From the NCBI GenBank assembly GCA_050732695.1, contig JBOHRL010000079.1, positions 1 to 61,590 on the forward strand: 61,590 nucleotides of DNA, given 5' to 3'. The position numbers and the translations under genes were made by a program. Below, in pieces: positions 2,067-18,716 of this stretch. The number at the start of each line of letters is the position of its first letter. The first letter of the stretch is position 1. Source of the DNA: Longimicrobiales bacterium. GTDB taxonomy: Bacteria > Gemmatimonadota > Gemmatimonadetes > Longimicrobiales > RSA9. The notes under the pieces were generated by a model. The model was not told the origin of the DNA. It did not search any database and worked only from the letters and a program-made list of their open reading frames with translations.

Positions 2067-3376
2067 TCAGCGTTGCCACCGTTGCAACGGCGAGCGCAAG
2101 CGGGTCTGCGGCAAATTGATTCCCCAGAGAAATCCTCGAATGAAGCGCATGAATGTGAAACTGGCGAGCAGGCCGATGCTGATTCCGGCTGCCGCTAGGC
2201 GGAACCCGTCGCTGAGCACGAGCGAGAAGAGGTCGCGTGTCTGTGCACCGATGGCGAGCCGGATGCCCATCTCGCGACGACGCCGTTTCGCGCTTTGCGC
2301 GATGGAACCATAGATGCCCAGGACGGCCAGCAGCAGGGCACCTCCACCGAACAGTGTAGCGGCCGTGGCGAGAGCCTCACGAGTTGCAACAGCGCTTCGA
2401 GCGGCGGACCGTGTCGTCTGGATCCCGGTGGGGGCGACACCGGATGAACATCGGCTATTTGACCGCGCTATTCGCGGCAAAGTCGACATGTCGTGGTTTC
2501 GCGCTCGCCGGATGTCGAGGATGCAATGAATCGTCGCTGCGAAGCCGGCGGGTCACGGTTCAGTCGGATGACGAAAGCAACGTGCGATTGCGGGCGCTCC
2601 GCGAAAGGTAGGTAGAACGCAGTCCCGATCTCGCTCTCGAATCCGCGCACCCGAATATCCCTTGCAACTCCCGCAATTCGGCGCGTCTCGGGTTCCGCGT
2701 TGGAACCGATCCGAAGGCGAACCCGTTCACCCACGACGTCCGCGTGCCCGAACAGTTCGAGCGCGAGCTGCCGGCTCAGGACAACCGTTGCATCGGCCAT
2801 GTTGCCGGGTCGGATTCCGACACCGGCAAAGAGCGGTACGCCGAGCGAAGCGAAGAAAGCATCCGATACGTACGTCACCGGGGCGCTGACGTAACGATCG
2901 TCTTCGGCCCGATCGCCCGGCCACAAGCGGGGAGCAAAGAGCATACCCTCGCCAAGTGGCAATTGTGAGCGGCCAACTCGCCACCGCCGCCGGGAGAGAT
3001 GCGATCCGTGGTGGATCTGCCGCGAATACCGCGGCCAAATCACAACCGGCGCCGGGCGGGACGCTCTCCGTGGTGGATCTGCCGCGAATAGCGCGGTCAA
3101 ATCACGACCGCCGCCGGGCGGGATGCGATCCGTGGTGGATCTGCCGCGGATCCAGCGTCGGCTGGACCGACCACACGCGATCGCCCTGCATCGTGGACCT
3201 CTTCTCACGCGGAGACGCTGGGAGGCGGAGTCGCAGAGAACGGACCAGTAGCGAAACGTCAGACGTCTGCGCCGACGGCAAGGTTCGCGGTACGCGGGCT
3301 GTTCACCATGCCGGGGAACAGCGAGTTCTGGCCTGACTGCGTCCTCAGTCCCCCGTAACCAATCCCCCGGCTGCAT
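2067..3376 (-). pseudogene. Decayed MacB-like ABC permease: second periplasmic core domain plus C-terminal FtsX domain, split over two frames
   Basis: ORF 2468-3376 contains a MacB_PCD-like segment (YVSDAFFASLGVPLFAGVGIRPGN...VVLSRQLALELFGHADVVGERVRL...IAGVARDIRVRGFESEIGTAFYLPFAE). It aligns with the second PCD of the full-length permease at 39593-42013. ORF 2067-2489, in another frame, carries the FtsX C-terminus (ALLLAVLGIYGSIAQSAKRRRREMGIRLAIGAQTRDLFSLVLSDGFRLAAAGISIGLLASF). The total span is ~1.3 kb against ~2.4 kb expected, so the N-terminal half is missing. A 63-bp tandem repeat sits in the 5' part. Confidence 0.45.
2986..3160. repeat. Tandem direct repeat, ~63-bp unit, ~2.8 copies
   Basis: Unit ...GCCGGGCGGGAYGCNNTCCGTGGTGGATCTGCCGCGAATASCGCGGYCAAATCACRAC repeated head to tail at ~2986-3048, 3049-3111 and 3112-3160 with few substitutions. 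Confidence 0.7.
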
Positions 3377-6300
3377 GCCCGACCTTCGGCTTGCGCCCCA
3401 GAACCTTCATCGTCGCCCACTCCTTCCACTCGTCAAGGATCTCATAAACGGTTGGAATTACGATGAGCGTGAGTAACGTCGATGTTATGACTCCGCCGAT
3501 GACGGCGCGGCCGAGCGGAGCGCGGAAGTCGGCGCCCTCGCCGAGTCCGAGGGCGACGGGAGTCATGCCGGCAATGAGTGCGAACGATGTCATGACGATG
3601 GGTCGCAGGCGGATGCGGCCGGCTTCGATCAACGCTTCTCTGCGAGTCATGCCGCGTTCGCGTCCCCATTTCGCGAAGTCGATGAGCAGGATCGCGTTCT
3701 TGGCGACGATGCCCATGAGCAGCATGACGCCGATCATGCTCATCAGGTTGAGCGTGGTGTTGGTGACGAGCAGGGCGAGGACGACGCCGATGAGGCTGAG
3801 CGGCAGCGAAACCATGATGCCGATCGGGTCGAGGAACGAGCCGAACTGCACGACGAGGATGAGATACATGAGCATGAGCGCGAAGCCGATGGCGGCGAAC
3901 ATCTCGATGAAGACTTCGTTCTGCTGTTCGAACTGGCCGCCGGGTGTGAAGCGGTAGCCGGCAGGAAGATCGAGTTGCTGAAGCCGCGCCTGGATCTCGG
4001 TCGAGACTTCGCCGAGTGAACGGCCCTGGGTGTTGGCCCCGATGGTGACGACCTTCTCGCGGTCGAGATGGTTGATCTGAGCGGGGCCAAGACCCGCCTC
4101 GATGGTTGCGACCTGTTCGAGCGGCACGATGGCTGGCGGTGAGCCGGGCTCGCCGCCGGGCAGCACGAGCGGAAGCTGCCGGATGTCCTCGGGACGACGC
4201 CTTGCTTGCGGTGAAAGGCGAACCATGACGTCGCGCGTCTCGCCATCGGGATCGATCCAGTCACCGGCATCGATGCCGGCGAAGGCGGGCCGCATGGCCT
4301 GCGCGATCTGGCCGATGCTGAGACCGAGCGAGCCGGCGAGGCCCCGTTGGATGCGGACGGTCAGTTCGGGCTTCTGGCCGCGCGTGGACAGGCCGACATC
4401 GACGGCATTCGGCACATCGCGGATGATGTCGGCGGCCTGTTCGGCAAGACTGGTGAGCGTCGTCGCGTCGGGCCCACGCAAGTCGAACTGGACCTCCTTC
4501 TGTGCATCACCGAAGCCGCTCGAGGAGACCCACGCTTGCGCGCCGCCCACACGCCGGATCTCCTCGCGGAGCGTGCCCGCAAACTCGTACTGGCTGACAT
4601 CGCGCTCTGCGCGCGGGACAAGCCGAACGTAGATGTTGGCCTGATCGACTGCACTGGCGCCGGCCACCCACGTCGTTCCGCTGGCGCCGACGGTCACGTA
4701 CGTGTACTGGACCTCGGGGTGTGCCCGCACCGTGCGCGCGACTTCCTCTGCCTTGATGCGCGTGTACTCGAGATTCGAGCCGGGCGCCGTCTCGACACCG
4801 ATGTTGATCTCGCTCCGGTCACTGTTGGGCACGAAGCCGAACCCGCCGAACACGACCTGGATGACGAGGGCGCCGATCATCGACAGGGCGGCAATGCCGA
4901 TCATGGCGAGGCGGTGGTCGAGGGCCCAGCCGATAACACGTTTGTACGAATCGGCCTGGCGATCGAACCAGTCATTGAACCGGCCGAGCAGGCGCGAGAT
5001 GGGATTCCTGCGTTCCTTCTTCTCGAGCTGCGGATCGTACCAGTACGCCGAGAGCATTGGATCGAGCGAGAACGAGACCAGCAACGAGACGAGCACGGCG
5101 CATGCGATGGTGAGCGCCATCGGCTTGAACCACTGGCCGGCTTCGCCTTCAATGAATGCGATGGGCAGGAACACGATCACGATCGAGAACGTGGTTGCCG
5201 TGACTGCGAGCCCGATCTCTTCCGTGGCCTCGCGAGCCGCGCGCAGGTGGTCCTTCCCCATCTGGATGTGGCGGACGATGTTCTCGCGCACGACAATCGC
5301 ATCATCGATGAGCACGCCGATCGCGAGCGACAGGCCCAGTAACGACATGGTATTCAGAGTGAAGCCGAACGCATAGACGGCAATGAAGGCAGACAGCACA
5401 CTGATGGGCAGTGCGAGCCCGGTGATGACCGTGGACCGCCACGAGTTCAGGAACACGAAGACGACGAGGATGGTCAGGATCGCGCCATCGATGAGCATCT
5501 CCTGGACGTTCGAGACGGAGTCCTCTACGCGGTCGCCGGCATCGGTCACGATGGAAACCTCGACATCGGCCGGTAACGAAGGTCGCAACTGGTCAATGCG
5601 CGCCTTGATTTCGTTTGCGACGGTGGTCGTGGACGTGCCATCGGACTTGAGGATGTCGAGGCCGACGGCGGGCCGGCCGTTGAAGAGTGCGGCAGAGCGC
5701 GCCTCTTCGGCGCCATCGCGGATGTCCGCGACCTGACCGAGCCGGATGATCTGACGATTCCGCTCGGCGACGACGAGCTGCTCGAACTCGGCGGGGCCGG
5801 CAAGGCGGCCTTCGAGCCGGATCGTACGCTCATCGATGTCACTGCTGACCCGTCCGACAGGCGCGGCCAGGTTCTGTGACTGGATGGCCTGCACGACATC
5901 CGCGACGCTCACGCCGGCTGCGCGGAGATCCGCGGGTCGCAGTTCGACTGTGAGTTCGCGCTCGGCGCCGCCGACGACGCGGACCGTGGCAACGCCCGCA
6001 ATGGAACGCAGCTCGCGCGTGATGCGAGGATCGGCAATGGCGGTCAGATCCGCCTGGGACAGCGTGTTCGACGACAGTGTGAGCGAGATGACGGGCAGGT
6101 CGCTCGGATCGAATCGCCCGAAGATCGGTTCCTCGATTTCAGGCGGCAGATCGCCGCGGATGCTCGATACCGCATCGCGCACATCCTGGGCTGCCTGGTC
6201 CACGCCCTTCGAGAAGACGAAGAACGTGATGATCTGGCCGAATCCGTCGAGCGATGTCGATTGCATGCGATCGACGCCGTTGATGCCTGCAATGGCTTCC

Positions 6301-6503
6301 TCGACGGGGTCGATCACTTCGCGTTCGACGACATCAGGCGATGCGCCGGGGTAGGGGATCGAGACCGTGACGACCGGACTCTGGATATCCGGGAATTCGT
6401 CGACCTCGAGACGCATGAGGGCGTACAGTCCGAAGGCAACGAGCGCAATCATCGACACGACGGTGATGATCGGACGACGAATCGAGAAATCCGAGATGAA
6501 CAC
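3345..6503 (-). CDS. RND multidrug efflux transporter, inner-membrane pump (AcrB/HAE1 family)
   Basis: 1052 aa. N-terminus MFISDFSIRRPIITVVSMIALVAFG, with RND hallmark blocks and 12-TM organisation. Follows the MFP gene on the same strand. Confidence 0.95.
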   Translation of the reverse strand: MFISDFSIRRPIITVVSMIALVAFGLYALMRLEVDEFPDIQSPVVTVSIPYPGASPDVVEREVIDPVEEAIAGINGVDRMQSTSLDGFGQIITFFVFSKGVDQAAQDVRDAVSSIRGDLPPEIEEPIFGRFDPSDLPVISLTLSSNTLSQADLTAIADPRITRELRSIAGVATVRVVGGAERELTVELRPADLRAAGVSVADVVQAIQSQNLAAPVGRVSSDIDERTIRLEGRLAGPAEFEQLVVAERNRQIIRLGQVADIRDGAEEARSAALFNGRPAVGLDILKSDGTSTTTVANEIKARIDQLRPSLPADVEVSIVTDAGDRVEDSVSNVQEMLIDGAILTILVVFVFLNSWRSTVITGLALPISVLSAFIAVYAFGFTLNTMSLLGLSLAIGVLIDDAIVVRENIVRHIQMGKDHLRAAREATEEIGLAVTATTFSIVIVFLPIAFIEGEAGQWFKPMALTIACAVLVSLLVSFSLDPMLSAYWYDPQLEKKERRNPISRLLGRFNDWFDRQADSYKRVIGWALDHRLAMIGIAALSMIGALVIQVVFGGFGFVPNSDRSEINIGVETAPGSNLEYTRIKAEEVARTVRAHPEVQYTYVTVGASGTTWVAGASAVDQANIYVRLVPRAERDVSQYEFAGTLREEIRRVGGAQAWVSSSGFGDAQKEVQFDLRGPDATTLTSLAEQAADIIRDVPNAVDVGLSTRGQKPELTVRIQRGLAGSLGLSIGQIAQAMRPAFAGIDAGDWIDPDGETRDVMVRLSPQARRRPEDIRQLPLVLPGGEPGSPPAIVPLEQVATIEAGLGPAQINHLDREKVVTIGANTQGRSLGEVSTEIQARLQQLDLPAGYRFTPGGQFEQQNEVFIEMFAAIGFALMLMYLILVVQFGSFLDPIGIMVSLPLSLIGVVLALLVTNTTLNLMSMIGVMLLMGIVAKNAILLIDFAKWGRERGMTRREALIEAGRIRLRPIVMTSFALIAGMTPVALGLGEGADFRAPLGRAVIGGVITSTLLTLIVIPTVYEILDEWKEWATMKVLGRKPKVGHAAGGLVTGD

Positions 6504-6563
6504 GCGTGCCTCCTATGCGCCGGGACGACAGATCGAGGAATCCGAGCCTACCACGCGTGCCTC

Positions 6564-7703
6564 TTAACGTTCGACGGCCGGAGAGTCGGCAAGCGACTGA
6601 ATCCGGACCGGCGTTCCCGGTGTGTACCCCTGAGCGGCGCCTGCGAGCAGCGTATCACCGAGTGCCAGGCCCGAGACGACCTCGATCCGTTCCGCCTGCT
6701 CGTCGCGAATCCCGGTCTGCACGTTGACGCGTTCGATCGTGCCGTTCCTGATGCGCAGGACACTGGCCCCGCTGGAGCTGATCTGAACCGCATTGAGCGG
6801 TGCGGCCAACGCGCGTTTCGCGTCGGTGCCGATGCGGCCCTGTGCGAACACGCCTCCCAGGAGATGGCCGCCCGCGTTCGGGATCGAGACCATCACGCCG
6901 ACCTGGCCCGTCGCTGGATCGACCGTCGGGTTGATGCGCGTGATCTCGCCGGAGAAGATGCGTTCGCCGTAGCCATTGACCGTGAAGTCCACAGGTGCGC
7001 CGATGCGCAGCTTGCCGATTTCCGATGCCGATACGGCGGCCTCGAGCCGCATGCCCGTCGGGTCCACAACCGTGAACAGGGGCAGGCCCGGCGAAACGAC
7101 ATCGCCTGCACTGACCGCTCGCTCGCTCACGATGCCGGTGATCGGCGCAAGGACGCGCGTGCTCTCGAGCTGTTTCTGCGCCTGCGCGAGACGGGCATTC
7201 GCGTCCGCGTGCTGCGCTTCCGCCGTTGTCGCCGCGACGCGGGCCGCCTCGAGGTCACGCTCGGCGATGGCGCCGGCTTCCGCCAGTCGTGTCGCACGCT
7301 CTGCATTGCGGCGCGCGACGCTCGCCGCCTGCTGCGCGGTTGTGACCGCCGACTGAGCCGAGAAGAACGCGTCGCGAATCGCCGTATCCTCGATGCGCGC
7401 AAGCGACGTCCCGACGCGAACACGCTGGCCGACTTCCGCCAGCGTCTGTAGAACCGTGCCGCCGACTTCCGCACGGATCGATGCCGCGCGCTCCGGCTGG
7501 AGCGATCCGGACAGCGATGGACCGCTCGCCAGATCGACCGAATCCACGACCACGATGTTCTCCGGACCGACCAGCACTGCTGTATCTTCATTAGCCATTT
7601 CCCCCTCGCTGCCGCCGCCGCACGCGGCCAACGTCACGCTCATGACGAGCGCGGCCGCCCTGCGCGTTGCCGTGAGGCGATGCACTGCTGTTTCCCGCTT
7701 CAC
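6564..7703 (-). CDS. RND efflux membrane fusion protein (AcrA/HlyD family periplasmic adaptor lipoprotein)
   Basis: 379 aa with lipoprotein signal (LVMSVTLAACGGG), a coiled-coil hairpin (QQAASVARRNAERATRLAEAGAIAERDLEAARVAATTAEAQ) and beta-barrel/MP domains. Overlaps the TolC stop by 4 nt. Confidence 0.9.
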   Translation of the reverse strand: MKRETAVHRLTATRRAAALVMSVTLAACGGGSEGEMANEDTAVLVGPENIVVVDSVDLASGPSLSGSLQPERAASIRAEVGGTVLQTLAEVGQRVRVGTSLARIEDTAIRDAFFSAQSAVTTAQQAASVARRNAERATRLAEAGAIAERDLEAARVAATTAEAQHADANARLAQAQKQLESTRVLAPITGIVSERAVSAGDVVSPGLPLFTVVDPTGMRLEAAVSASEIGKLRIGAPVDFTVNGYGERIFSGEITRINPTVDPATGQVGVMVSIPNAGGHLLGGVFAQGRIGTDAKRALAAPLNAVQISSSGASVLRIRNGTIERVNVQTGIRDEQAERIEVVSGLALGDTLLAGAAQGYTPGTPVRIQSLADSPAVER

Positions 7704-9352
7704 CGCTGTCCTCCTCCCGTCATGCCACTTGCCGTGCGCACCGTCTGTGTTCCTGTCTGCGTTTGTGGCACGGACTGTTGCGGTTGCACCTGTTGCACAG
7801 GCATTGGCGCGGCGCGAGCAGCGGTCTCCCCAGTCGAGAGCGGCAGGAACGGTAACAATGCGTTACGCAGCATCGCGATCTGGAGATCACGCGCGGCCTG
7901 CGCCCGGTTAGCCTGCGCCTGTTGTTGCAGGATTCGCGAGTCGGTGAGTTCCAGCTGAGTCGAAATACCTTCACGGTACCTGACCCCGGCAATCGCGTAC
8001 GCGCGCGCTGCCTGCTCGACCGTACCCGCACTCGCCTGCCACGCAGACCTCGCCGCTGCCAGCCGCGCCGACGCATCCCGCGTATCCAGCGCGGTCAATT
8101 CGCGCGTCATGTCGAGGCGTGCCCGCGCCTCTTCGAGATTCGCACGTGCAACGGCCTCATCGCCGCTGATCCTGAATCCGGTGAAGATCGGCAGCTGGAT
8201 GCTCGCCGAGATCGATGAATTCGTACGGTACGGGACATTGAACGGGTTGCCATTCTCGGGATACCCGACGCGGCCGTAGGACAGGGCGACCGTCAGCGAG
8301 GGCAGACGCTGTGCTCTGGCCACGCGCACAAGACCCTGCTGAACGCGTACGCCCTGCTCTGCCTGCTGGACCGGAACACGTGCGGCCGCGGTGTCCAGCT
8401 CCACATCAAGGATCTGACTCGCAAGCCGCACGATACCTCCCATGCCGACCTGCTCATCATCGAGGTCGGTCGTCAACAGGATCGATGTGTCAGCCGGCAG
8501 ATTGAGCAACTGCTTCAGGCGCAGCATCGCAAGATCGCGGTCCGCACGCCGCTGGATCACGAGCGGTTCCTGCGTCGAGCGTGTGACCTGGGCGCGCAAC
8601 AATTCGAACTCCGACTGATCACCCACATCGCGTGCAAGACGAACCTGCGACAGCGTGGTTTCCGCCTGCTCGAGCGTCGCCTCGGAGATGACGAACAACC
8701 GCTGCGCAAGCGCCGCATCGTAATACGCACTCGCCACCTCGAGGACGAGCTGCGCCCGCTCCGCTGCAAGCACGAGTTCCGCCGTGCGACGCCCCGCTGC
8801 CGCGACCTGGCTCTGCGCCTGAACGCGGCCACCCGAGAAGATCGTCTGACTCACCGTCAGATCGAATCGCCAGATGTTCTCACGGCCGAACGGAAGATCG
8901 CTGAACGAACCGAACGGGTCCTCCCGCGACTGGCAGCGCACGGCCGCTTCCAGCGAATCCACCCGCGCCGGCAATGGAAGCACCGGGTCTGGTGTGAATG
9001 TGCCGCAATCGGACGGCGGGGCGTCCGTAGACGTCGTGTCCTGACCGCCACCGCCGAACGACTCGAATTCGCTCGCCAGTGTGCGCGTGAACGATGCCGA
9101 CCCGAATACCTGCGGGTAGTATTCGCTCCTCGCCCGCTGCTGCTCGCCGGCCGATCGCATGACACCCGCACGTGCAATCGCGACACGCTCGCTCGCTGCC
9201 TCCGCCGCTCGCAACGCCGCCTCCAGCGACAGCGACTGCGCCGTGTCAACCGACTGCCCCGACAGCGACGCCGGCACCAGCAACTGCATCGCCACCAACA
9301 CCCCGCTCAACCCGATCGTTCGACCGCTCATTCCACGCCTGACGTCGTTCAT
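7700..9352 (-). CDS. TolC-like outer membrane efflux factor (OMF)
   Basis: Two repeated alpha-helical/beta-barrel halves (TVSQTIFSGGRVQAQ..., LSYGRVGYPENGNPF...). The start is proposed at the internal Met (MNDVRRGMSGRTIGLSGVLVAMQLLVPASLSGQ, a signal peptide) rather than the ORF-track start at 9508. C-terminal Gln/Thr-rich low-complexity tail. Confidence 0.85.
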   Translation of the reverse strand: MNDVRRGMSGRTIGLSGVLVAMQLLVPASLSGQSVDTAQSLSLEAALRAAEAASERVAIARAGVMRSAGEQQRARSEYYPQVFGSASFTRTLASEFESFGGGGQDTTSTDAPPSDCGTFTPDPVLPLPARVDSLEAAVRCQSREDPFGSFSDLPFGRENIWRFDLTVSQTIFSGGRVQAQSQVAAAGRRTAELVLAAERAQLVLEVASAYYDAALAQRLFVISEATLEQAETTLSQVRLARDVGDQSEFELLRAQVTRSTQEPLVIQRRADRDLAMLRLKQLLNLPADTSILLTTDLDDEQVGMGGIVRLASQILDVELDTAAARVPVQQAEQGVRVQQGLVRVARAQRLPSLTVALSYGRVGYPENGNPFNVPYRTNSSISASIQLPIFTGFRISGDEAVARANLEEARARLDMTRELTALDTRDASARLAAARSAWQASAGTVEQAARAYAIAGVRYREGISTQLELTDSRILQQQAQANRAQAARDLQIAMLRNALLPFLPLSTGETAARAAPMPVQQVQPQQSVPQTQTGTQTVRTASGMTGGGQR

Positions 9353-9377
9353 GCTCGCCCCCTCAATACCGTCCGCG

Positions 9378-9959
9378 TCACACTGCGCGTTCCGCTCCGC
9401 CGATCGCTCGCAAGAGCAGGTCCACATACAACGCGGGCGCCTCGTCCATCGTGTAATTGAAAACTTCCGGCATGAAGTCACGCCCCATCGCATCCGAAAA
9501 CAATGCACCGATCAACATCGCCGCACACGCACGTACATCGACATCCCCTGCGACCAGACCGCGCCGCTGAAGCCGAGCCAGATAGCCGCTCAACTCCGCA
9601 TGCACCCGAAGCGGCCGGTCCCGCGCCGCATCCAGCAACTCAGGCCGCTCCTGCGCCTCCCCCATCACCGTCCGGATCATCAGCCGCACACTGTAGAGAT
9701 GCGCCAGCTGGAGCCGACTCCATCCGACCAGTTCCTCACGCACATCGCGCGATTTCCGGGGCAGGTGCGGAAACTCCGCCGTTCGACCCGCCCGCCCGAC
9801 CGCCTCCCGCACCAGCTCTCCCTTCGTTCCGAAGTGACGGAACAACGTGACCTCGTTCACGCCCGCCGCGTCCGCAATCCGCCGCGTGGTCGTCCCGCGA
9901 TACCCCAATTCACCAAACAGCCGCTGTGCCGCATCGAGGATCCGTTCCCGGTTGTCCAT
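9378..9959 (-). CDS. TetR/AcrR-family transcriptional regulator, first gene of the efflux operon
   Basis: MDNRERILDAAQRLFGELGYRGTTTRRIADAAGVNEVTLFRHFGTKGEL is the canonical TetR HTH. The ATG at 9957-9959 is in frame with ORF 9378-10430. It lies 25 bp upstream of tolC on the same strand. Confidence 0.85.
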   Translation of the reverse strand: MDNRERILDAAQRLFGELGYRGTTTRRIADAAGVNEVTLFRHFGTKGELVREAVGRAGRTAEFPHLPRKSRDVREELVGWSRLQLAHLYSVRLMIRTVMGEAQERPELLDAARDRPLRVHAELSGYLARLQRRGLVAGDVDVRACAAMLIGALFSDAMGRDFMPEVFNYTMDEAPALYVDLLLRAIGGAERAV

Positions 9960-9988
9960 GTGGTGAAGATGGCGGCCGGGAGCGGCCT

Positions 9989-11093: not shown

Positions 11094-14063
11094 TCAGAAT
11101 GCCCACCACCACTGAACTGCGAACAGATTGTCGCGCGGGTCTGCGTCCGCGGTCCTGTTCACGACGTATTCGGCGAGGATTCCGGTATTGCGGAGGATGC
11201 GATAGCCGGCGCCGACCTGGAGTCTCTTCACGTTGCGATCCCATGGCTGAGTGCCTGTGGCGGTGTCGAGATCGTTGAAGCGCAACTCGTTCCACCGGGC
11301 GGCAAGGGAAAGGCCGGCCGTTGCCTTGTACTGAGTCTCGACGTACCAGGAGAAGTCGCGCGGATCCGTGGAGAGGTTGGGAACCTGCCAGCGATCGAAG
11401 AAGATCTCGCCGCGTACGGTGGTCCTGCCGCGGGCGAAGACGGCTTCGGCGTTCCAGATCTCCTGGTCGAAGTCGTGAGGCTCGGCGCGGTCAGGAAGCG
11501 GACCTTCGTCGACGCGATCGATATAAGGGCCGCGATTGTATGCGAGTCCGAGGCGAAGTTCGGGCACGATCTGCATGGCTGCACCGACGACCACCGAAGG
11601 GTGGCGCAAGCGATCGGAATCGAGGTCCCAGTCATCGGGCCCGCTCGAGGGTGATGCCGTCAATGCCGCAGCGCGCACGACGAGATCACCGAATGCGGTG
11701 GAGAGCATCGCACCCCATGGATAGGGCACGTTCCAGACCTGGGGCGCGCCACGGGGGCGGCGGTCCGGCTGATTCTTCCAGTCGAGGAAACCGGCCGTTG
11801 CGGCGGGCACGACGGTAGCGGAAACGAGCGTCCTGTAGTCGTAGGCGAGCGGCGGGCGGATAAGCGGATCGTCCACGGTGTGGTGACGTTCTGCGTAACC
11901 GCCGAACGGCGTCGCAAACTTTCCAGCCTGGATGGCCAGTCTTGCGCGTGCGAACGGAACCACGCGCAGGAAGACCTGTTCGATTCGCGCTTCGACACCG
12001 GCATCAGCGGGAGCTTCACCGCGGTCTGCGCGCAGCTCGAGCATCGCATAGACGTGGTCACCCGCAAACACGTCCGTGAGGAGCCGAAGTCGTCCTGCGA
12101 CGAAAGGATCGACGGACGGGATCAGCCAGGGTGGCGAATCCTGCGGGACATAGCCCTCGAGATCGAGCCGGCCGCTGAAATCGATCTGGAAGGCGCCGGA
12201 CGTCGAGATGTAGCTGAGGCCGAGACCGGCGAGCGTCGGCAGACCGGGCCCGCGATCCTGTGCACTGACGGGAGCTGCCACGCTGGCGAGTGCGAGCGCG
12301 ATCGCGCCAGCGATGCGACGCGGAGCGGACGCGTTGCCGGTGCCGCTCGCGACCGCAAAGATGGGTGTTGGCTGCGAGAACCCCTTGAGCCGGCGCCGGC
12401 CACGGGTCGCGACCGGGATGCGGTCCTCCACGGCGAGCATGGTCGATTCCGAAATCAGGATCTCGCCCGGAGCGGCGGCATCACACAATCGCGCGGCAAG
12501 GTTCACGGTCTCGCCGATCACTGTGTAGTTGAGGCGGTCGGGCGAACCGACATTCCCGGCGAGGACCGGGCCGGTGCTCGCGCCGATTGCAATGTTCACA
12601 GCGGGGTCGCCGCGTGCCTCGCGTTCGAGGTTGATGCGCCGAGTCGCTTCCTGCATGCGCAATGCGGCGCGCACGGCGCGGAGCGCATCATCGTCATGAA
12701 CGATGGGTGCGCCGAAGATGGCCATGATGCCGTCCCCGGTGTACTTGTCGACGACACCGCCCTCTTCCTCGATGGTCTGGCTCCACGCCGTCATGCATTC
12801 GTTGAGTGTGGCAATGACGGCACCGGGCCGCGCGCCCTCGGCCAGTGCCGTGAAGCCGACGATATCGGCGAACACGACAGAAACGGTCCGCATCTCGCCG
12901 CCGAGGTGCAGCGGCCCGGCCATGAGATCGTTGGCGATTTCACGGGATACGACCTTTTGCAGCACATCGCGGTAGCGCTCCTTGAGTGCGAGTCCTTCGA
13001 CCATCAGGTTGAAGGAGCGCGCGAGGGTAGCCAGCTCATCGCGGCCGTGCACCGGCACGCGCGTCTCGAGATCGCCACGCGCGATGCGATCCGTAGCATG
13101 CACCAGCGCGCGCACGGGCCGCGTCAGGCGTTGCGAGAGCAGAGCGCCGATCGTGAGAGCGACGAGGAGAGCGACGAGGCCGGTCCACACCAGTACGGTG
13201 CGAATGCGCTCGAACGGGGCAATCGCTTCATCGATCGGTACAGCGATGACACGGCGCACGGCCGGCTCGACCCCTGCCGGTGTCACGCTCTCGGCAGCGA
13301 GCATCCAACGGCGTGCATCGGTCATTACGACGTGGTCGTTGCCGTTCTCCGTTGCCGCCATCTGCGCGCGAAGTGACCTGCCGGGGCCGGTTCCGGCAAT
13401 GCACTGGCGCTTGGCGGCGAAGCAGACCTCGACACCTGCAGCCTGACCGAGGCGAGCGGCGTCCTCCGCATCGATCGGTACACCGAACACGACAGTGCCG
13501 ATCGCCCGGCCGGCCAGTGCGACGGGTTCGGCCGTCAACGCGAAGAGCCGGCTGTCGATCAGGCGGTACGTCGTCTCGCCGATCGAATCGCGCTCGGCGG
13601 CCGTTCGCGCGAGAGTTGTCGCGCCCGCCGGATCGCCCGGGACCGCCTTGCCGTCGAGCAGAGTGGCGACGATTTCTCCGCGCGCATCGGTGAACGCCGC
13701 CACGCCGGAAGTGAGGCGGGCGAGGTCCAGTTCATAGCGGGCCGTCTCGAGGAGCCAGTCGGGTTCGCCGGATTCGAGGGAGGCCTCGAGCGCGGCGAGT
13801 GTGCGTCGTGAATCGGTGAACGCGCGGGCGAGGCGTGCGAGCTGGGCGCGATGCAACTGTTCGACTTCAGCGAACGCCCTGCGCGAGATTCCGGCGGCAC
13901 GCAACGTCACGTGACGGACCTGGCTCGCCGTTTGCCTCTCCACGAGTACGAGCATGGTCCCGGCGACGAGCAGCACGAGGCCCAGCAGCGAAAGCATCAG
14001 TCGCGCGGCGAAACTGGTGCGCAAGCGCTCGGTGATATGCGCCTCCCGCACGCGCGTACTCAC
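11094..14063 (-). CDS. Membrane sensor adenylate/guanylate cyclase (TM-periplasmic domain-TM-HAMP-class III cyclase) continuous with a C-terminal signal-peptide-like segment and OMP-like beta-barrel domain
   Basis: 989-aa ORF. TM1 LMLSLLGLVLLVAGTMLVLV, a ~250-aa extracytoplasmic domain, TM2, HAMP, then a class III cyclase (VSVVFADIVGFTALAE, KYTGDGIMAIFGAP, ..LKGFSQPTPIFAV). With no stop it continues into RRIAGAIALALASVAAPVSAQD plus ~385 aa with amphipathic beta-strand periodicity ending FAVQWWWAF. Confidence 0.85.
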   Translation of the reverse strand: MSTRVREAHITERLRTSFAARLMLSLLGLVLLVAGTMLVLVERQTASQVRHVTLRAAGISRRAFAEVEQLHRAQLARLARAFTDSRRTLAALEASLESGEPDWLLETARYELDLARLTSGVAAFTDARGEIVATLLDGKAVPGDPAGATTLARTAAERDSIGETTYRLIDSRLFALTAEPVALAGRAIGTVVFGVPIDAEDAARLGQAAGVEVCFAAKRQCIAGTGPGRSLRAQMAATENGNDHVVMTDARRWMLAAESVTPAGVEPAVRRVIAVPIDEAIAPFERIRTVLVWTGLVALLVALTIGALLSQRLTRPVRALVHATDRIARGDLETRVPVHGRDELATLARSFNLMVEGLALKERYRDVLQKVVSREIANDLMAGPLHLGGEMRTVSVVFADIVGFTALAEGARPGAVIATLNECMTAWSQTIEEEGGVVDKYTGDGIMAIFGAPIVHDDDALRAVRAALRMQEATRRINLEREARGDPAVNIAIGASTGPVLAGNVGSPDRLNYTVIGETVNLAARLCDAAAPGEILISESTMLAVEDRIPVATRGRRRLKGFSQPTPIFAVASGTGNASAPRRIAGAIALALASVAAPVSAQDRGPGLPTLAGLGLSYISTSGAFQIDFSGRLDLEGYVPQDSPPWLIPSVDPFVAGRLRLLTDVFAGDHVYAMLELRADRGEAPADAGVEARIEQVFLRVVPFARARLAIQAGKFATPFGGYAERHHTVDDPLIRPPLAYDYRTLVSATVVPAATAGFLDWKNQPDRRPRGAPQVWNVPYPWGAMLSTAFGDLVVRAAALTASPSSGPDDWDLDSDRLRHPSVVVGAAMQIVPELRLGLAYNRGPYIDRVDEGPLPDRAEPHDFDQEIWNAEAVFARGRTTVRGEIFFDRWQVPNLSTDPRDFSWYVETQYKATAGLSLAARWNELRFNDLDTATGTQPWDRNVKRLQVGAGYRILRNTGILAEYVVNRTADADPRDNLFAVQWWWAF

Positions 14064-14779
14064 GACAGTGGAATCGTGAGACTGGTCGTACGCCCCGACT
14101 CGACGGTAATCGTCGTGACGCGGCCATCCACATCGGGATGCCAGGCCTCGAGTTCCCAGCGGCCCGCCGGGACATCATGGATCACGAACGTGCCCCGGTC
14201 GTCGACCATCGCGTGAAACGGATTCTGAACTACGATCACAGCGCTGCGCATCGTCTCGTGCACTTCACAGTAGATCCGAACGATGCCCGGCTCATCGAAA
14301 CGCACGGACTTGGACTCACCCTGCGGATACCGGCCCAGATCGAAGCGTTGGGCCGGAGAATACGAGAACACGTTGTGAAAGAACGGGTCCCCGTTCGGGA
14401 ACTCGACGGTACCGCCCACGCGAACGAATACGACTGCGGGCGCGAATGTCGTGTCGTGCTGCTCGAGCCGGACTCGCCCGGCGGTCGGAGAAACAGCGGG
14501 AAACGGCCCGCGCAGAAAGACGACGGCAGGGATCGATTGCACCGTGTGCGGCGCCTCGACGGCGCCACCGAGGTAGCGCTTCGCTCGGCGCCTTGCGGCG
14601 GCGGGTCTGACTTCGAGGCGGCCCTCGATCGTGCCGAGGCGAATGGGATGGCCAGTCTCGAGCCGACCCTCGATCGCGCCGATGCGCATGCCACCCGCGA
14701 CCGGGCCCAGCGGGTGAGCCGGCATCGACTGGCCGCTTACCATGAGAGCGGCAAGCATGACGAGAAGGAGAACACGCAT
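14060..14779 (-). CDS. Secreted cupredoxin (type-1 blue copper, amicyanin/pseudoazurin-like) protein
   Basis: Signal peptide MRVLLLVMLAALMVSGQS. Copper ligand set His (FFHNVFS) plus Cys-x2-His-x2-Met (RIYCEVHETM). Internal tandem 15-aa repeat IGAIEGRLE / LGTIEGRLE. Its stop overlaps the cyclase GTG start (GTGA). Confidence 0.7.
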   Translation of the reverse strand: MRVLLLVMLAALMVSGQSMPAHPLGPVAGGMRIGAIEGRLETGHPIRLGTIEGRLEVRPAAARRRAKRYLGGAVEAPHTVQSIPAVVFLRGPFPAVSPTAGRVRLEQHDTTFAPAVVFVRVGGTVEFPNGDPFFHNVFSYSPAQRFDLGRYPQGESKSVRFDEPGIVRIYCEVHETMRSAVIVVQNPFHAMVDDRGTFVIHDVPAGRWELEAWHPDVDGRVTTITVESGRTTSLTIPLS

Positions 14780-15058: not shown

Positions 15059-16015
15059 ATGGTCACACGACGCGAATGGCTCGGCATCACTGCCGGCGCG
15101 GGCGCCGCGCTGGCACTGGATCCCCGCTTGCTGCGGGCGCTCCGAACGCAGCAGCTCATCACCCGTGCCATCCCATCGAGCGGCGAGCAGCTGCCCGTCG
15201 TGGGACTGGGCAGTTCGGCAACATTCTCACGGGTCGCACGAAGCGAGGACGTATCCGCGCTGCGTGATGTATTTCATGCGATGGTCGAAGGCGGGGCGAG
15301 TGTCTTCGACACAGCGCCCGGCTATGGCGCGTCGGAGGAGGTCGCCGGCCGGATCGCAAGCGAGCTGGGCGTCACGGACCGGATCTTCTGGGCGACGAAG
15401 GTGAACGTCGCACGCCAGGGCCCGGCGGATCCGGCGGCGGCGAGGGAGCAGATCGACCGATCGTTCGAACGGATCGGCAAGGACAGGATCGACCTGATTC
15501 AGGTCCACAACCTTGGCGATGTCCCGACTCAGCTCGGCATCCTGAAGGACATCAAGGCACAGGGGCGCGTGCGCTACATCGGCGTTACGACGACGAGCGA
15601 AGAACAATACGAGGAGCTTGCCGGGATCATGCGCAGCGAGCCGATCGACTTCATCGGCATCGACTACGCCATCGATAATCGCCAGGTCGAAACGACGATT
15701 CTGCCACTCGCGCTCGAACGGAAGATCGGCGTGCTGGTCTACGCACCGTTCGGCCGTACGCGCCTCTTTACCCGTGCCGGAGATCGTTCTTTGCCGGAAT
15801 GGGCGAGCGAGTTCGACGCGAATTCATGGGCGCAGTTCTTCCTCAAGTTCATTGCGGCACACCCGGCGGTGACGGCGATCACGCCTGCGACAAGCCAGGC
15901 GCGCAACATGATCGACAACATCGGCGGGGCAACGGGTCGGCTGCCGGACGAGGCCACACGGCAGCGCATGATCGAACTCGTCGATGCCCTGCCGCCGGCG
16001 CCTCCGCGCCGGTAG
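15059..16015 (+). CDS. Aldo/keto reductase with Tat-type signal peptide
   Basis: TRREWLGITAGAGAALAL Tat-like N-terminus. AKR blocks VFDTAPGYG, IDLIQVHN, RYIGVT. Confidence 0.9.
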   Translation: MVTRREWLGITAGAGAALALDPRLLRALRTQQLITRAIPSSGEQLPVVGLGSSATFSRVARSEDVSALRDVFHAMVEGGASVFDTAPGYGASEEVAGRIASELGVTDRIFWATKVNVARQGPADPAAAREQIDRSFERIGKDRIDLIQVHNLGDVPTQLGILKDIKAQGRVRYIGVTTTSEEQYEELAGIMRSEPIDFIGIDYAIDNRQVETTILPLALERKIGVLVYAPFGRTRLFTRAGDRSLPEWASEFDANSWAQFFLKFIAAHPAVTAITPATSQARNMIDNIGGATGRLPDEATRQRMIELVDALPPAPPRR

Positions 16016-16090: not shown

Positions 16091-16123
16091 GATCCGTCCG
16101 GTCGGCTGACGGCCGGACGGATC
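16091..16123. terminator. GC-rich hairpin between convergent genes (candidate bidirectional terminator)
   Basis: GATCCGTCCGGTCGG-ctga-CGGCCGGACGGATC, a ~14-bp stem with one mismatch. It overlaps the stop of the 16122-18716 gene. Confidence 0.5.
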
Positions 16124-18716
16124 ACATACTCAGCCAGTACGCGACCTTGATGAGAAACGTGTTCTCGGGGTGCAACTGGAAGAGATCGCCGTACTCGCCT
16201 TTCCACGAGCGAGGTGTCACCCGATCATCGGACGCCTGCCGGCCGTGCGCCCACACGAGGAAGAGGGTCGATCCGGGCAGATACTCCCAGCGCGCGACGG
16301 CGTTCGTCCGCAGTTGATGGAACTTGAACGCCGTCGCGGCGGAAACCGGCGGCACGAACGGGGCAAAGCGCGCGTCGTACTCGTCCGCACCAGGGGTCGC
16401 GCTCAGTTCGCGGAACCCGGAGTACGTGCCCTTGCTGACGAACGGTTCGGCATACAGCTCGAACGTGAGATCCGGGCCGGCTGTGTAGTTCACGCGCAGA
16501 TTCATGGACAGCGTGCGTTGCTCGAGGTGCGCGAAGGCATGGTGCGTCAGCATGCCGTCCGTGAAGTTGCCGAACCACTGCGAGTGATTCGTATTGCGGG
16601 AGATGTTGGTGCCGATGCTCGTCTGGAGGCGCTCCGAGAAACGGATCTGGAGGTTGGGACTCAGGTTCACGGACCGGGTCTGGCCCTCGTCACCGAAGCT
16701 GAGATTGACCCAGAGGTTTGGAACGAGCGTGCGGCGGCTGTCCCCGTTGATGCCGAACCACGGGTAGATGCCGCGCGATTCTCGCAGCGCGGGCCCGCCA
16801 CGCGTGCAGCGATCGCAGTAGGACTCGCCGAACCCGTCGAACGTGATGCCCGCGTGCAGGTTCCAGTTGTTATGGAGGCCCATGTGGGCGTTGCCGTTGA
16901 CCGCGAACTGAAGGCGCCTGCCGGATGTGTTCCAGGTCTGCCAATGGTTGCCGTTGATGCGCAACCAGCGATATGGGCCGCGCGGCGTGAGGAAGTTGAG
17001 TGCGGCCCACGTGCTCCAGTCCTGGAGGTCCGCACGGCGCAGATAACCGAGATCGTTCACATCGAACCCTGCGGACTGCCGGACGAAACTGGTTTCGAAG
17101 CGCGTGATGCCGCCGCCGTACTTTCCGAACTTGATCTGTTGCGCATGGCCTGACAACGATGTGCGTGCCGCGTCCAATCGTGCGTTATCATCCGGCTGCT
17201 GAAAGTAGTGAACGGCGTTGCGCTGCGTGCGGTCAACGGCTTCGCTGGTGCCAGCGACTCGCGAGGCAGCGAACGAGCCGGCCAGCTCATACTGCCCGCC
17301 GAACATGCGGTTGCGGGCGCTCACGCCGGCGACATAGGCGCTGCTGTGCACGAACGGCGCCGTCCACTCGTCGAGTGAACGGTTGACCGCTGTGCCGATC
17401 AAGCGGATGCCGGCCTCGCCGCCGCGCAGATCCTGCTCGACACTGATGACGGCGAAGTTCGAGCGCGGTTCAACGGTCGTGCCGTTTGCACCATCGACGT
17501 GCTGCGTGACGGCATCGAGGATGCCGAAGGAAAGGCCGTTGCGGGTCCGCCCCGTCAGCTTGGCAGCGGCGGCAATGGGCGTGGCCGTTGGTGTCGATGC
17601 ATCGCCGTAGTCATTGCGGAGGATTGGTGAACGGCCGATACGACGCGAGTGGAAAAGGCCTTCGTTGGTGCTGCAATCCACGACGATGTAGCAGTTCAGG
17701 GCGAAGCGGTAGAGTCCAGTACCCTCGACGAAGAACGGCCGCCGCTCACTGAGGAACGTCTCGAATGCGCTCAGATTGAGGACAGCAGGATCGGCTTCGA
17801 CCTGGCCGAAGTCGGGGTTCACGGTCGCGTCCAGCGTAGCGTTCGGCGTCACGCGCAGTTTCAGATCGGCGCCGGCCGAGACGTGCTGCGCACGCTCGAA
17901 ACCGCCAGTGGCTCTTCCCCGTGTTTCGTTCCTGGCCAGGGTGTAAGGCGTTACTTCGAGAGAACGCGCACTGCTGATGCCGGCGATTCCTTCGAGGTTC
18001 CCGAGTTGCGACACGAGCCCGTTCCGCGTTTTGCGGAAGAGCGGCCAACTCACCCGCTCGCGATAGCGCTCGATATCACGGAACACACCGAACCCGAACG
18101 TGTGGCGCGGTGCATCGGCGTAACGAAGCTGCGACAACGGGATCCGGTACTCGGCCGTCCAGCCGAGCGAATCGACCACGGTCGCGACATCCCATACGCC
18201 GTTCCACGAGCCATCTTCGTTGCCGTCATTGTACACTGCATAATCTCGTTTTACGCCGACCGGATTCACGGCGAACTCGAAACCGGTCCGGTTGTCATTG
18301 TAGGAGTCGATGAAAACCACGATCTGGTCCGACGGGCCGCGCACGTCACGGCGAGTCAGCGCGCGCATGATGCTGTCCGGATGGGGGTCCCAGGCGCGCA
18401 CGAAAACGAAGAAATCGCGGTCGTCGTACGCGACCTGGACCTCCGTCCGGAACGACGGGTCCGCATCCTCGAGGGGCTCGAACTGGCGGAAATCCGCAAC
18501 GCGCACGGCAACGCGCCAGACGTCATCATCGGCGAGACCATCGATCGAAGGGGGCCGGGCCGCCCGGTGGGCGACCACCGTCGCACGGGCCTCTGACTCG
18601 GGTGTCGACTGGGGCGGCATCGCGCCAGGTAGCGGAACGGCAAGCGTCACAGCGGTTACGGCCGCAAGCAAAGGCATCCGCGACATCCTGTTGAGGGGCT
18701 CCGCACGATGTGACAT
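16122..18716 (-). CDS. CBM9-like/DOMON-like plus DUF5916 beta-barrel family protein, secreted
   Basis: 864 aa with signal peptide. N-terminal block PSIDGLADDDVWRVAVRVADFRQFEPLEDADPSFRTEVQVAYDDRDFFVFVRAW matches the CBM family 9-like domain that precedes DUF5916 in Bacteroidota and Gemmatimonadota proteins. Confidence 0.75.
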   Translation of the reverse strand: MSHRAEPLNRMSRMPLLAAVTAVTLAVPLPGAMPPQSTPESEARATVVAHRAARPPSIDGLADDDVWRVAVRVADFRQFEPLEDADPSFRTEVQVAYDDRDFFVFVRAWDPHPDSIMRALTRRDVRGPSDQIVVFIDSYNDNRTGFEFAVNPVGVKRDYAVYNDGNEDGSWNGVWDVATVVDSLGWTAEYRIPLSQLRYADAPRHTFGFGVFRDIERYRERVSWPLFRKTRNGLVSQLGNLEGIAGISSARSLEVTPYTLARNETRGRATGGFERAQHVSAGADLKLRVTPNATLDATVNPDFGQVEADPAVLNLSAFETFLSERRPFFVEGTGLYRFALNCYIVVDCSTNEGLFHSRRIGRSPILRNDYGDASTPTATPIAAAAKLTGRTRNGLSFGILDAVTQHVDGANGTTVEPRSNFAVISVEQDLRGGEAGIRLIGTAVNRSLDEWTAPFVHSSAYVAGVSARNRMFGGQYELAGSFAASRVAGTSEAVDRTQRNAVHYFQQPDDNARLDAARTSLSGHAQQIKFGKYGGGITRFETSFVRQSAGFDVNDLGYLRRADLQDWSTWAALNFLTPRGPYRWLRINGNHWQTWNTSGRRLQFAVNGNAHMGLHNNWNLHAGITFDGFGESYCDRCTRGGPALRESRGIYPWFGINGDSRRTLVPNLWVNLSFGDEGQTRSVNLSPNLQIRFSERLQTSIGTNISRNTNHSQWFGNFTDGMLTHHAFAHLEQRTLSMNLRVNYTAGPDLTFELYAEPFVSKGTYSGFRELSATPGADEYDARFAPFVPPVSAATAFKFHQLRTNAVARWEYLPGSTLFLVWAHGRQASDDRVTPRSWKGEYGDLFQLHPENTFLIKVAYWLSM

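Follow-up and report, generated by a model that had tools for sequence, protein, structure and literature searches.

A sensor adenylate cyclase joined in frame to a predicted porin in a Longimicrobiales bacterium: a probable precursor of two envelope proteins

On the minus strand of the Longimicrobiales contig JBOHRL010000079.1 (assembly GCA_050732695.1), a 989-residue open reading frame (ORF) reads through a sensor adenylate cyclase and, without a stop codon, on into a segment resembling a signal peptide and then a β-barrel. The question is what such an ORF encodes: a cytoplasmic signaling enzyme truly joined to an exported module, as an earlier note on this DNA had considered, or a once-separate barrel gene that lost its start and stop through decay or an assembly indel. 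The stretch analyzed, hereafter the window, is the complete public contig of this metagenome-assembled genome (MAG), 61,590 nucleotides long. Two minus-strand ORFs were found at the locus in the ORF listing.

11094..14063, minus strand: fused ORF of 989 residues, comprising a sensor adenylate cyclase, a predicted internal signal peptide, and a predicted porin
14060..14779, minus strand: ORF of 239 residues, first of the unit, gene of a predicted secreted cupredoxin (N-terminal signal peptide, cupredoxin at residues 104-183, CarboxypepD_reg-like β-sandwich at residues 179-238)
14060..14063, minus strand: cupredoxin/cyclase overlap GTGA as read in the DNA, with the stop TGA at 14062-14060 and the start GTG at 14063-14061

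In the NCBI record (MGH7502727.1) the long ORF is one protein, "adenylate/guanylate cyclase domain-containing protein"; public annotation names only the cyclase domain, and the porin half is therefore invisible. The reading that we prefer, with a probability of about 0.6, is that the ORF is a natural fusion of two neighboring, normally translationally coupled genes and encodes the precursor of two envelope proteins, a polyprotein that would be cut by signal peptidase I.

The junction was read codon by codon. The cyclase domain of the ORF ends ...RRLKGFSQPTPIFAVASG, and from there the frame continues into RRIAGAIALALASVAAPVSA and then QD; the residues across the junction are ...KGFSQPTPIFAVASG-TGNASAP-RR-IAGAIALALASVAA-PVSA-QD..., with no stop among them. 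The stop-free run into a segment with n/h/c architecture and an AxA-like site, as described in the earlier note, was thus confirmed at the level of single codons.

12261..12341, minus strand: linker plus internal signal-peptide-like segment, residues 575-601, made up of TGNASAP, RR (n-region), IAGAIALALASVAA (h-region), and PVSA (c-region)
between 12261 and 12260, minus strand: predicted signal peptidase I site A601/Q602, placed from the codon listing and the homologues

These parts have the anatomy of a Sec signal peptide, with a basic n-region, a hydrophobic core, and small residues at positions -3 and -1 ahead of the Gln. The sole canonical start codon near the junction was a GTG within the hydrophobic core, leaving no usable internal start in the window. 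A twin-arginine translocation (Tat) signal was considered for the RR pair and rejected, because the other fused proteins carried no consistent twin-arginine motif; barrel proteins are, moreover, exported unfolded, which speaks against the Tat route.

The same fusion was found in independently assembled DNA. A protein from a different, 27.8-kb contig was identical at 983 of 985 residues (99.8%), with one internal substitution and the same junction. When the C-terminal 415 residues alone were used as the query, two kinds of protein were returned, namely, stand-alone homologues of about 400 residues with their own Met and signal peptide, and longer cyclase fusions, 45-56% identical to the query, in which the end of the cyclase runs into a signal-like segment and the barrel. 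An exhaustive profile search gave 1518 cluster representatives, 397 of them at E ≤ 1e-30; full-length fusions of 939-1032 residues, with the barrel at about residues 600-1000, accounted for 26 of the best 150 representatives of 50%-identity clusters, and HAMP and cyclase domains were present in seven of eight full-length representatives sampled. Furthermore, 56 loci were fetched from species-representative genomes (labels such as L001, L006, and L062 denote stretches fetched from related genomes, and labels of the type P0001 denote individual proteins), and the 55 with a barrel match were classified by arrangement.

22 of 55 loci: cyclase and barrel in one uninterrupted ORF
7 of 55 loci: separate co-directional cyclase and barrel genes
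7 of 55 loci: cupredoxin-cyclase operon convergent on the barrel gene
1 of 55 loci: divergent
3 of 55 loci: cupredoxin gene directly upstream of a barrel paralogue
15 of 55 loci: no partner in the fetched stretch

The 22 fused loci came from species-level genomes with barrel identities of 38-63%, on contigs that included some of 175 kb to 2.9 Mb. In the window, coding-type GC content at third codon positions (GC3, 0.77), catalytic residues, and barrel motifs were intact across the whole ORF. The near-identical independent assembly, the species genomes, and the cluster representatives together bear out the proposal of the earlier note that the barrel is really fused to the cyclase. Among the database entries, the closest relative, P0001 (78% identical barrel), is probably also a fusion annotated too short: on its contig (L061:3-200), the start chosen by the gene caller is a Met inside the hydrophobic core, and upstream of it an acidic low-complexity linker continues in open frame as far as the contig edge. 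Two metagenomic entries, P0097 and P0100, begin as cyclase-porin proteins, and their barrels then drift into Arg/Gly-rich out-of-frame sequence; some database entries of the family thus carry frameshifts, as sequencing errors or pseudogenes.

In the split relatives, the gene order was cupredoxin, sensor-cyclase, and barrel, and the barrel start nearly always overlapped the cyclase stop in ATGA or GTGA, so that a small indel is enough to fuse the two frames or to part them. On a rough neighbor-joining tree of barrel domains, which is crude and carries no support values, fused and split forms were interspersed (L022/L031; the window and L005 versus L001; L014/L019; L006/L024), and one clade of eight deeply diverged genomes was entirely fused. 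We take this interspersion as an argument that either state can stand in for the other functionally. When the closest fused/split pair, L022/L031, was aligned at the DNA level, several small indels confined to the junction were seen, and not a single identifiable fusing event. Of the suggestion in the earlier note that an independent outer-membrane protein gene had lost its start and stop, one part is correct: judged from the split relatives, the porin began as a downstream gene of its own, coupled to the cyclase in translation, as it still is in some of them. The other part, an assembly indel or decay, was rejected here. In related genomes, the loci were split in some relatives, and the same in-frame fusion was present in the 22 loci listed above.

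In every one of the 23 fused proteins compared, the homologous position, just before the conserved LPTL motif, held a segment equivalent to that of the window. Each contained a basic patch and an apolar run, together with a P/G break and with small residues in positions -3 and -1, the last being a pattern that the site-finding rule partly enforces. These internal segments resembled the N-terminal signal peptides of the unfused homologues; the apolar run had a median of 14 residues in the former and 13 in the latter, and Gln occupied position +1 in 17 of 23 fused versus 28 of 35 unfused proteins. The signal-peptide features persisted through the entirely fused clade, whose eight genomes (L034, L039, L015, L010, L056, L026, L011, and L017) are deeply diverged. 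The linker, of approximately 20-100 mostly low-complexity residues, varied in length only on the cytoplasmic side of the segment.

The approximately 388 residues that remain at the C terminus were modeled confidently as a β-barrel with a porin fold (predicted local distance difference test score 84, predicted template modeling score 0.82).

11097..12260, minus strand: porin module, residues 602-989, about 16 long β-strands in an OprP-like fold
11718..11918, minus strand: long, highly conserved loop after strand 5, residues 716-782, GKFATPFGGYAERHH...RPP..., between model strands E135-141 and E209-217
11097..11123, minus strand: C-terminal strand FAVQWWWAF with a β-signal-like end

In the model, a closed antiparallel barrel of about 16 strands matched solved porins, in agreement with the C-terminal barrel that had been proposed from the sequence and for which a structure prediction had been suggested as a check. 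The terminal aromatic signature proposed with it was equally found: the ORF ends FAVQWWWAF-TGA in the DNA, and the terminal residue was F or Y in 20 of 23 fused and 30 of 35 unfused homologues (50 of 58 in all). The Pfam porin families Porin_O_P, Porin_1, and Porin_4 gave no match in this C-terminal part at E ≤ 0.1, and the only porin-type match, OMP_b-brl, was below threshold (E 0.034, 14.7 bits versus a cutoff of 28.7). Across the last 415 residues or so, nothing was significant in Pfam, and for the two ORFs NCBIfam added no specific family; a precomputed Porin_4 match was carried by 1 of 30 homologues. The loop at residues 716-782 was the densest run of invariant and near-invariant columns, and it sits in the model where the L3 constriction loop of porins does, to which, on porin architecture, it may correspond. 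An outer-membrane location and a channel role are thus predicted for the module from its modeled fold. Only about 16-24 residues separated the hydrophobic segment from the first barrel strand in the model.

The N-terminal 574 residues constitute an inner-membrane sensor adenylate cyclase with two transmembrane helices (TM1 and TM2), a tandem-PAS periplasmic domain, HAMP, and a class III catalytic domain. Pfam and the model thereby upheld the layout given in the earlier note, in which an extracytoplasmic domain of about 250 residues between TM1 and TM2 was followed by HAMP and a complete cyclase domain.

13941..14000, minus strand: TM1, residues 22-41, LMLSLLGLVLLVAGTMLVLV, identified from the sequence and lying inside the long N-terminal helix of the AF2 model
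13197..13940, minus strand: periplasmic sensor domain, residues 42-289, stalk helices and two PAS-like α/β modules
13134..13196, minus strand: TM2, residues 290-310, VLVWTGLVALLVALTIGALLS, identified from the sequence and a helix in the AF2 model
12990..13142, minus strand: HAMP, residues 308-358 (Pfam PF00672, E 1.2e-17, 64.4 bits, cutoff 25)
12381..12893, minus strand: class III nucleotidyl cyclase catalytic domain, residues 391-561 (Pfam PF00211, E 4.6e-25, 88.7 bits, cutoff 21.9)

HAMP follows TM2 directly, as in HAMP-linked receptors, and the sensor domain has the tandem-PAS architecture, with a long stalk helix and then two PAS-like α/β modules between the two transmembrane helices. No named Pfam sensor family scored above its cutoff for this domain, the best being CHASE4 (20.2 versus 26.2 bits); dCache_3 was carried by one distant homologue. 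Like the barrel, the sensor thus agrees with a known fold and falls outside the named Pfam sequence families. The catalytic residues D400, K440, D444, T514, N521, and R525, positions assigned from motif knowledge without a structure, were all present and were invariant in 38 of 38 fused and unfused homologues. From what is known of class III cyclases, the Lys/Thr pair points to a predicted adenylyl cyclase of the IIIb type. In the split relatives, the cyclase protein stopped 8-25 residues past a shared KGFSxPxxV motif, which fits the earlier description of the end of the domain in the ORF as a normal C terminus. At the other end, a second candidate GTG start was found at 14051 (codon 5), from which P0320 (99.8% identical) is annotated.

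The upstream 239-residue protein is "hypothetical protein ACREL7_13355" in the public record. It passed the Pfam cutoff for Copper-bind (22.7 bits versus 21.2) and matched CarboxypepD_reg at E 2.7e-6; its closest sequence match in the PDB was plastocyanin 1bxu (E 1.7e-4), with the ligands in register.

14249..14377, minus strand: type-1 copper ligand set, His135 (14375-14377), Cys171 (14267-14269), His174 (14258-14260), and Met177 (14249-14251)
14613..14690, minus strand: tandem duplication of a 15-residue G-x-IEG-x-L unit near the mature N terminus, a direct repeat of 33 nucleotides with 85% identity and a spacing of 45 nucleotides

The ligands His135 and Cys171-x2-His174-x2-Met177 were invariant in 38 of 38 homologues from related loci. 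The protein is thus a predicted type-1 (blue) copper protein by its ligands and profile, and it did not belong to the named NCBIfam subfamilies plastocyanin, amicyanin, pseudoazurin, and halocyanin (16-21 bits versus cutoffs of 88-110). The secreted cupredoxin with a full ligand set had been recognized in the earlier note, and the alignment of its ligands to plastocyanin and amicyanin agrees; the CarboxypepD_reg-like C-terminal domain was absent from that description. The family combining cupredoxin and CarboxypepD_reg is very large, with at least 7964 matches under generic names only. The 15-residue duplication, also noted earlier, is real at the DNA level: a short-seed repeat search placed its copies at 14613-14645 and 14658-14690, and Tandem Repeats Finder did not report it in this gene. 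It was specific to the window, a single G-x-IEG-x-V/L unit being found in all 37 homologues examined. The GTGA overlap with the cyclase start stood as described, and 4-base overlaps between the cupredoxin and the following gene were also present in L001, L002, and L062.

The cupredoxin and sensor-cyclase adjoined the barrel in approximately 38 of the 55 loci, whether fused, split, convergent, or divergent, and the trio was thus kept together in four different gene arrangements. The convergent loci (L029, L036, L037, L040, L042, L047, and L058), with the cupredoxin-cyclase operon on the opposite strand from the barrel, belonged to a sister barrel clade, and in L049 the operon diverged from the barrel gene. 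In three loci (L033:1307-3354, L035:5408-7326, and L038:5370-7302), the cupredoxin gene and a barrel paralogue just downstream of it were direct neighbors, without an intervening sensor gene, which suggests that the copper protein and the porin may work as a pair. A version with a different output was found in an Opitutaceae (Verrucomicrobiota) MAG, GCA_036502225.1. There (L062:4668-8820), an OmpR-type response regulator, a cupredoxin homologue (38% identity, E 4e-33, copper ligands kept), and a kinase-porin fusion (P0155, HEY3757330.1) were all joined by 4-bp overlaps; the fusion consisted of HisKA and HATPase_c, a signal-like segment, and a homologous barrel (28% identity, E 2e-38). It appears that the same porin family was here joined independently, in another phylum, to another output. 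Because the same layout occurs with a kinase, the conserved core is the cupredoxin, the periplasmic sensor, and the porin, and the cytoplasmic output is interchangeable. A copper or redox input to cyclic AMP (cAMP) signaling, which the earlier note had suggested, becomes more plausible with copper ligands kept in 38 of 38 homologues and with a trio that recurs with another output. Downstream of the kinase-porin gene, the cluster at L062:8926-14772 encodes a 412-residue protein without a family, a 568-residue Ig-like protein, DUF3570, a thioredoxin-like protein, DUF4266, and ApbE. The cluster, in which ApbE is a flavin transferase, hints at a periplasmic redox theme; the 412-residue protein was considered as a barrel paralogue and rejected on comparison.

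The following course of events is proposed for the fused ORF. The hydrophobic segment would insert as a third transmembrane helix, N-in/C-out, restarting Sec translocation during membrane insertion. Signal peptidase I would then cut after VSA601, and a porin of approximately 43 kDa starting at Gln602 would be freed into the periplasm and inserted in the outer membrane by the β-barrel assembly machinery (BAM) through its C-terminal aromatic signal. Cleavage at A601-Q602 would yield the semi-tryptic peptide QDRGPGLPTLAGLGLSYISTSGAFQIDFSGR. The signal peptide would be left on the cyclase, where, attached through a flexible linker, it would anchor the C terminus in the membrane. The width of the periplasm far exceeds the span of the 16-24 residues before the first strand; an outer-membrane barrel must therefore be released. 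The fusion would be tolerated because processing gives the same two products as split genes, and it would assure that sensor and porin are equimolar and made at the same site. Their genomic association suggests that the porin, the blue-copper/CarboxypepD_reg protein, and the periplasmic sensor may form one functional unit, in which the dedicated porin would admit a small solute or ion to the periplasm; this solute, or its effect on the occupancy or redox state of the copper protein, would be sensed by the tandem-PAS domain and/or the blue-copper protein, and HAMP would convert the signal into cAMP synthesis.

Were the third helix left uncleaved, the C-terminal domain would stay attached to the cyclase; it would then serve in sensing or output, in the periplasm or in association with a membrane, or be a barrel of the outer membrane with a physical link to the inner one. 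Such a permanent tether would fit the topology (N-in, TM1 out, TM2 in, TM3 out) and the hydrophobicity of the internal segments, which slightly exceeds that of N-terminal signal peptides, and a covalent link would give a selective reason for the prevalence of fusion over split co-directional genes (22 versus 7 loci). We nevertheless regard it as unlikely, because a domain with all 16 strands of a porin and a conserved aromatic residue at its C terminus has its place in the outer membrane, which so short a stretch before the first strand could not reach across the periplasm. The linker, moreover, varies only on the cytoplasmic side, the small -3/-1 residues and the P/G break are kept although an anchor does not need them, and the interconversion of fused and split forms on the tree implies the same end products. 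Of the third helix that the earlier note proposed for export of the C-terminal domain, the topology is therefore retained, and as to its fate, cleavage as an internal signal peptide is better supported than permanent tethering. The porin might also be made mostly from a start codon just upstream of the signal peptide, the long ORF being read through for the cyclase. In 19 of 23 fused loci an in-frame GTG, ATG, or TTG did occur 14-45 codons before the predicted site, some with a purine-rich motif. Such internal initiation was rejected as a general mechanism, because the window, L006, L010, and L045 have no in-frame ATG, GTG, or TTG from which a separate porin could start. Only four fused loci had an ATG, the codon with which the barrel gene almost invariably begins at the overlap in split loci; at a GC content of 65%, chance alone should supply GTG (Val) codons; and without a cyclase stop, ribosomes would still produce the full-length fusion. 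We hold internal initiation to be improbable.

An artefact or decay, in which an assembly indel or a recent inactivating mutation left a nonfunctional fused ORF, can be imagined, since split and fused relatives differ by small indels at the overlapping stop/start junction and P0097 and P0100 do carry frameshifted barrels. Against this stand the identical junction in an independent assembly, the fusions in 22 species genomes and among 26 of the 150 best representatives, the long contigs, and the intact GC3, catalytic residues, and barrel motifs; assembly error or a pseudogene was ruled out on these grounds, and we give it next to no credence. The cleaved precursor itself faces several objections. 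Cleavage, outer-membrane location, and porin activity are all predicted properties, and bacterial membrane proteins in which signal peptidase cuts an internal signal are, to our knowledge, rare. The slightly greater hydrophobicity of the internal segments (KD19 median of 1.71 versus 1.51 for N-terminal ones) would suit a permanent anchor too, the -3/-1 counts are not independent evidence, and in the 19 loci with an in-frame start codon in the linker internal initiation is possible. Furthermore, frequent and recent fusions could leave signal-peptide features by ancestry and not by selection in the fused state. As for the functional unit, nothing in the results ties the porin to copper, and the sensor domain of the cyclase had no significant sequence similarity to that of the Opitutaceae kinase (E 0.039).

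Taken singly, the parts of the locus all have known counterparts: the cyclase is a class III enzyme with HAMP, the sensor is of the tandem-PAS kind, the porin has an OprP-like fold, the copper protein is type-1, and the signal peptide is of the Sec kind. In fold, the porin module resembles the phosphate-selective porins OprP and OprO of Pseudomonas aeruginosa (PDB 2o4v) and the classical 16-strand trimeric porins (OmpF/OmpC, Omp32, and PorB). It differs from them in being only 16% identical, with no significant Pfam porin match, and in being encoded as the C-terminal part of, or immediately beside, an inner-membrane sensor enzyme; unlike in OprP, its conserved charged residues are mixed Arg and acidic ones, with no evident arginine ladder. 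The nearest cyclases we take to be the HAMP-containing class III enzymes (IIIb-type) of Mycobacterium tuberculosis, Rv3645 and the Rv1318c-Rv1320c group. Like Rv3645-type cyclases, the ORF has two transmembrane helices around an extracytoplasmic domain, HAMP, the Lys/Thr pair, and the Asp-Asp/Asn/Arg set; unlike them, it has a tandem-PAS sensor of approximately 250 residues, 415 extra residues with a signal peptide and porin, and a cupredoxin gene as partner. The copper protein shares with plastocyanin and amicyanin the aligned His...Cys-x2-His-x2-Met set and a score above the Copper-bind cutoff, whereas it falls far below their NCBIfam cutoffs, carries the CarboxypepD_reg-like domain and the FHNVFSYS...RFDLGRYP motif, and has signaling proteins, not redox enzymes, as genomic partners.

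A precedent for the proposed processing is the cytochrome b/c1 polyprotein FbcH of Bradyrhizobium japonicum, in which an internal signal peptide is reportedly cleaved to give two mature proteins (work ascribed to Thony-Meyer and colleagues, 1989-1991). As is reported for FbcH, an inner-membrane protein and a downstream exported protein that work together would be encoded in one ORF. The products of FbcH, however, are said both to stay at the inner membrane in one complex, whereas the porin released here would go to the outer membrane and need BAM, and its cleavage is a predicted one. Sensors that rely on a periplasmic partner are known in LuxP-LuxQ and in the Vibrio chitoporin ChiP with CBP and ChiS. 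Unlike in those systems, the partner here would be a type-1 copper protein with a β-sandwich and not a periplasmic binding protein, all three parts lie in one operon or ORF, and the output would be cAMP, or a histidine kinase in Opitutaceae.

The novelty lies in the outer-membrane porin encoded as the C-terminal part of an inner-membrane sensor enzyme, and in the conserved trio; a full-text literature search brought up neither a porin-cyclase or porin-kinase fusion nor a cupredoxin/sensor/porin cassette. In the usual view, outer-membrane β-barrels are made as proteins of their own and exported by Sec through N-terminal signal peptides. A porin as the tail of a signaling enzyme would be a new case for how Sec restarts export after a large folded cytoplasmic domain, for how signal peptidase handles internal signals in bacteria, and for how a barrel released at a defined site of the inner membrane reaches BAM. 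As a Rosetta stone, the fusion ties a porin family without a Pfam entry (the 1518 representatives) and the large cupredoxin/CarboxypepD_reg family to signal transduction, and it offers, for soil phyla that have received little study, a testable context in which copper, redox, or small solutes would be sensed and the output would be cAMP or a two-component system. More tentatively, and with real doubt, the trio might represent a previously unrecognized, widespread class of envelope-spanning signaling systems in Gemmatimonadota and neighboring phyla with a counterpart in Verrucomicrobiota, in which channel and copper protein would jointly pass on a signal, redox or metal, to outputs that can be exchanged (synthesis of cAMP or phosphorylation by a two-component system) and the porin would routinely be released by signal peptidase along an undescribed biogenesis route. 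The importance of the locus would rise if processing and trans-envelope sensing were demonstrated.

The flanking genes were functionally unrelated to the fused ORF: an efflux set (TetR/OEP/HlyD/AcrB), a Zn-peptidase, an aldo-keto reductase, and a DUF5916/CBM9 protein. No regulator binding cyclic nucleoside monophosphates was found among the window genes within approximately 8 kb of the locus. Promoter and terminator scans of the window gave counts at chance level and were uninformative, and operon boundaries were not drawn from them. The TetR regulator and the OEP/HlyD/AcrB resistance-nodulation-division efflux operon lie downstream of the locus (3345-9980, minus strand), and the 864-residue DUF5916 and CBM9 protein lies beyond the aldo-keto reductase (16122-18716, minus strand), neither with an evident tie to the fusion. 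The aldo-keto reductase gene (15059-16015, plus strand) is divergent from the cupredoxin gene, and the N terminus of its product, MVTRREWLGITAGAGAALAL, resembles a twin-arginine export signal, which is unusual in a family that is normally cytoplasmic.

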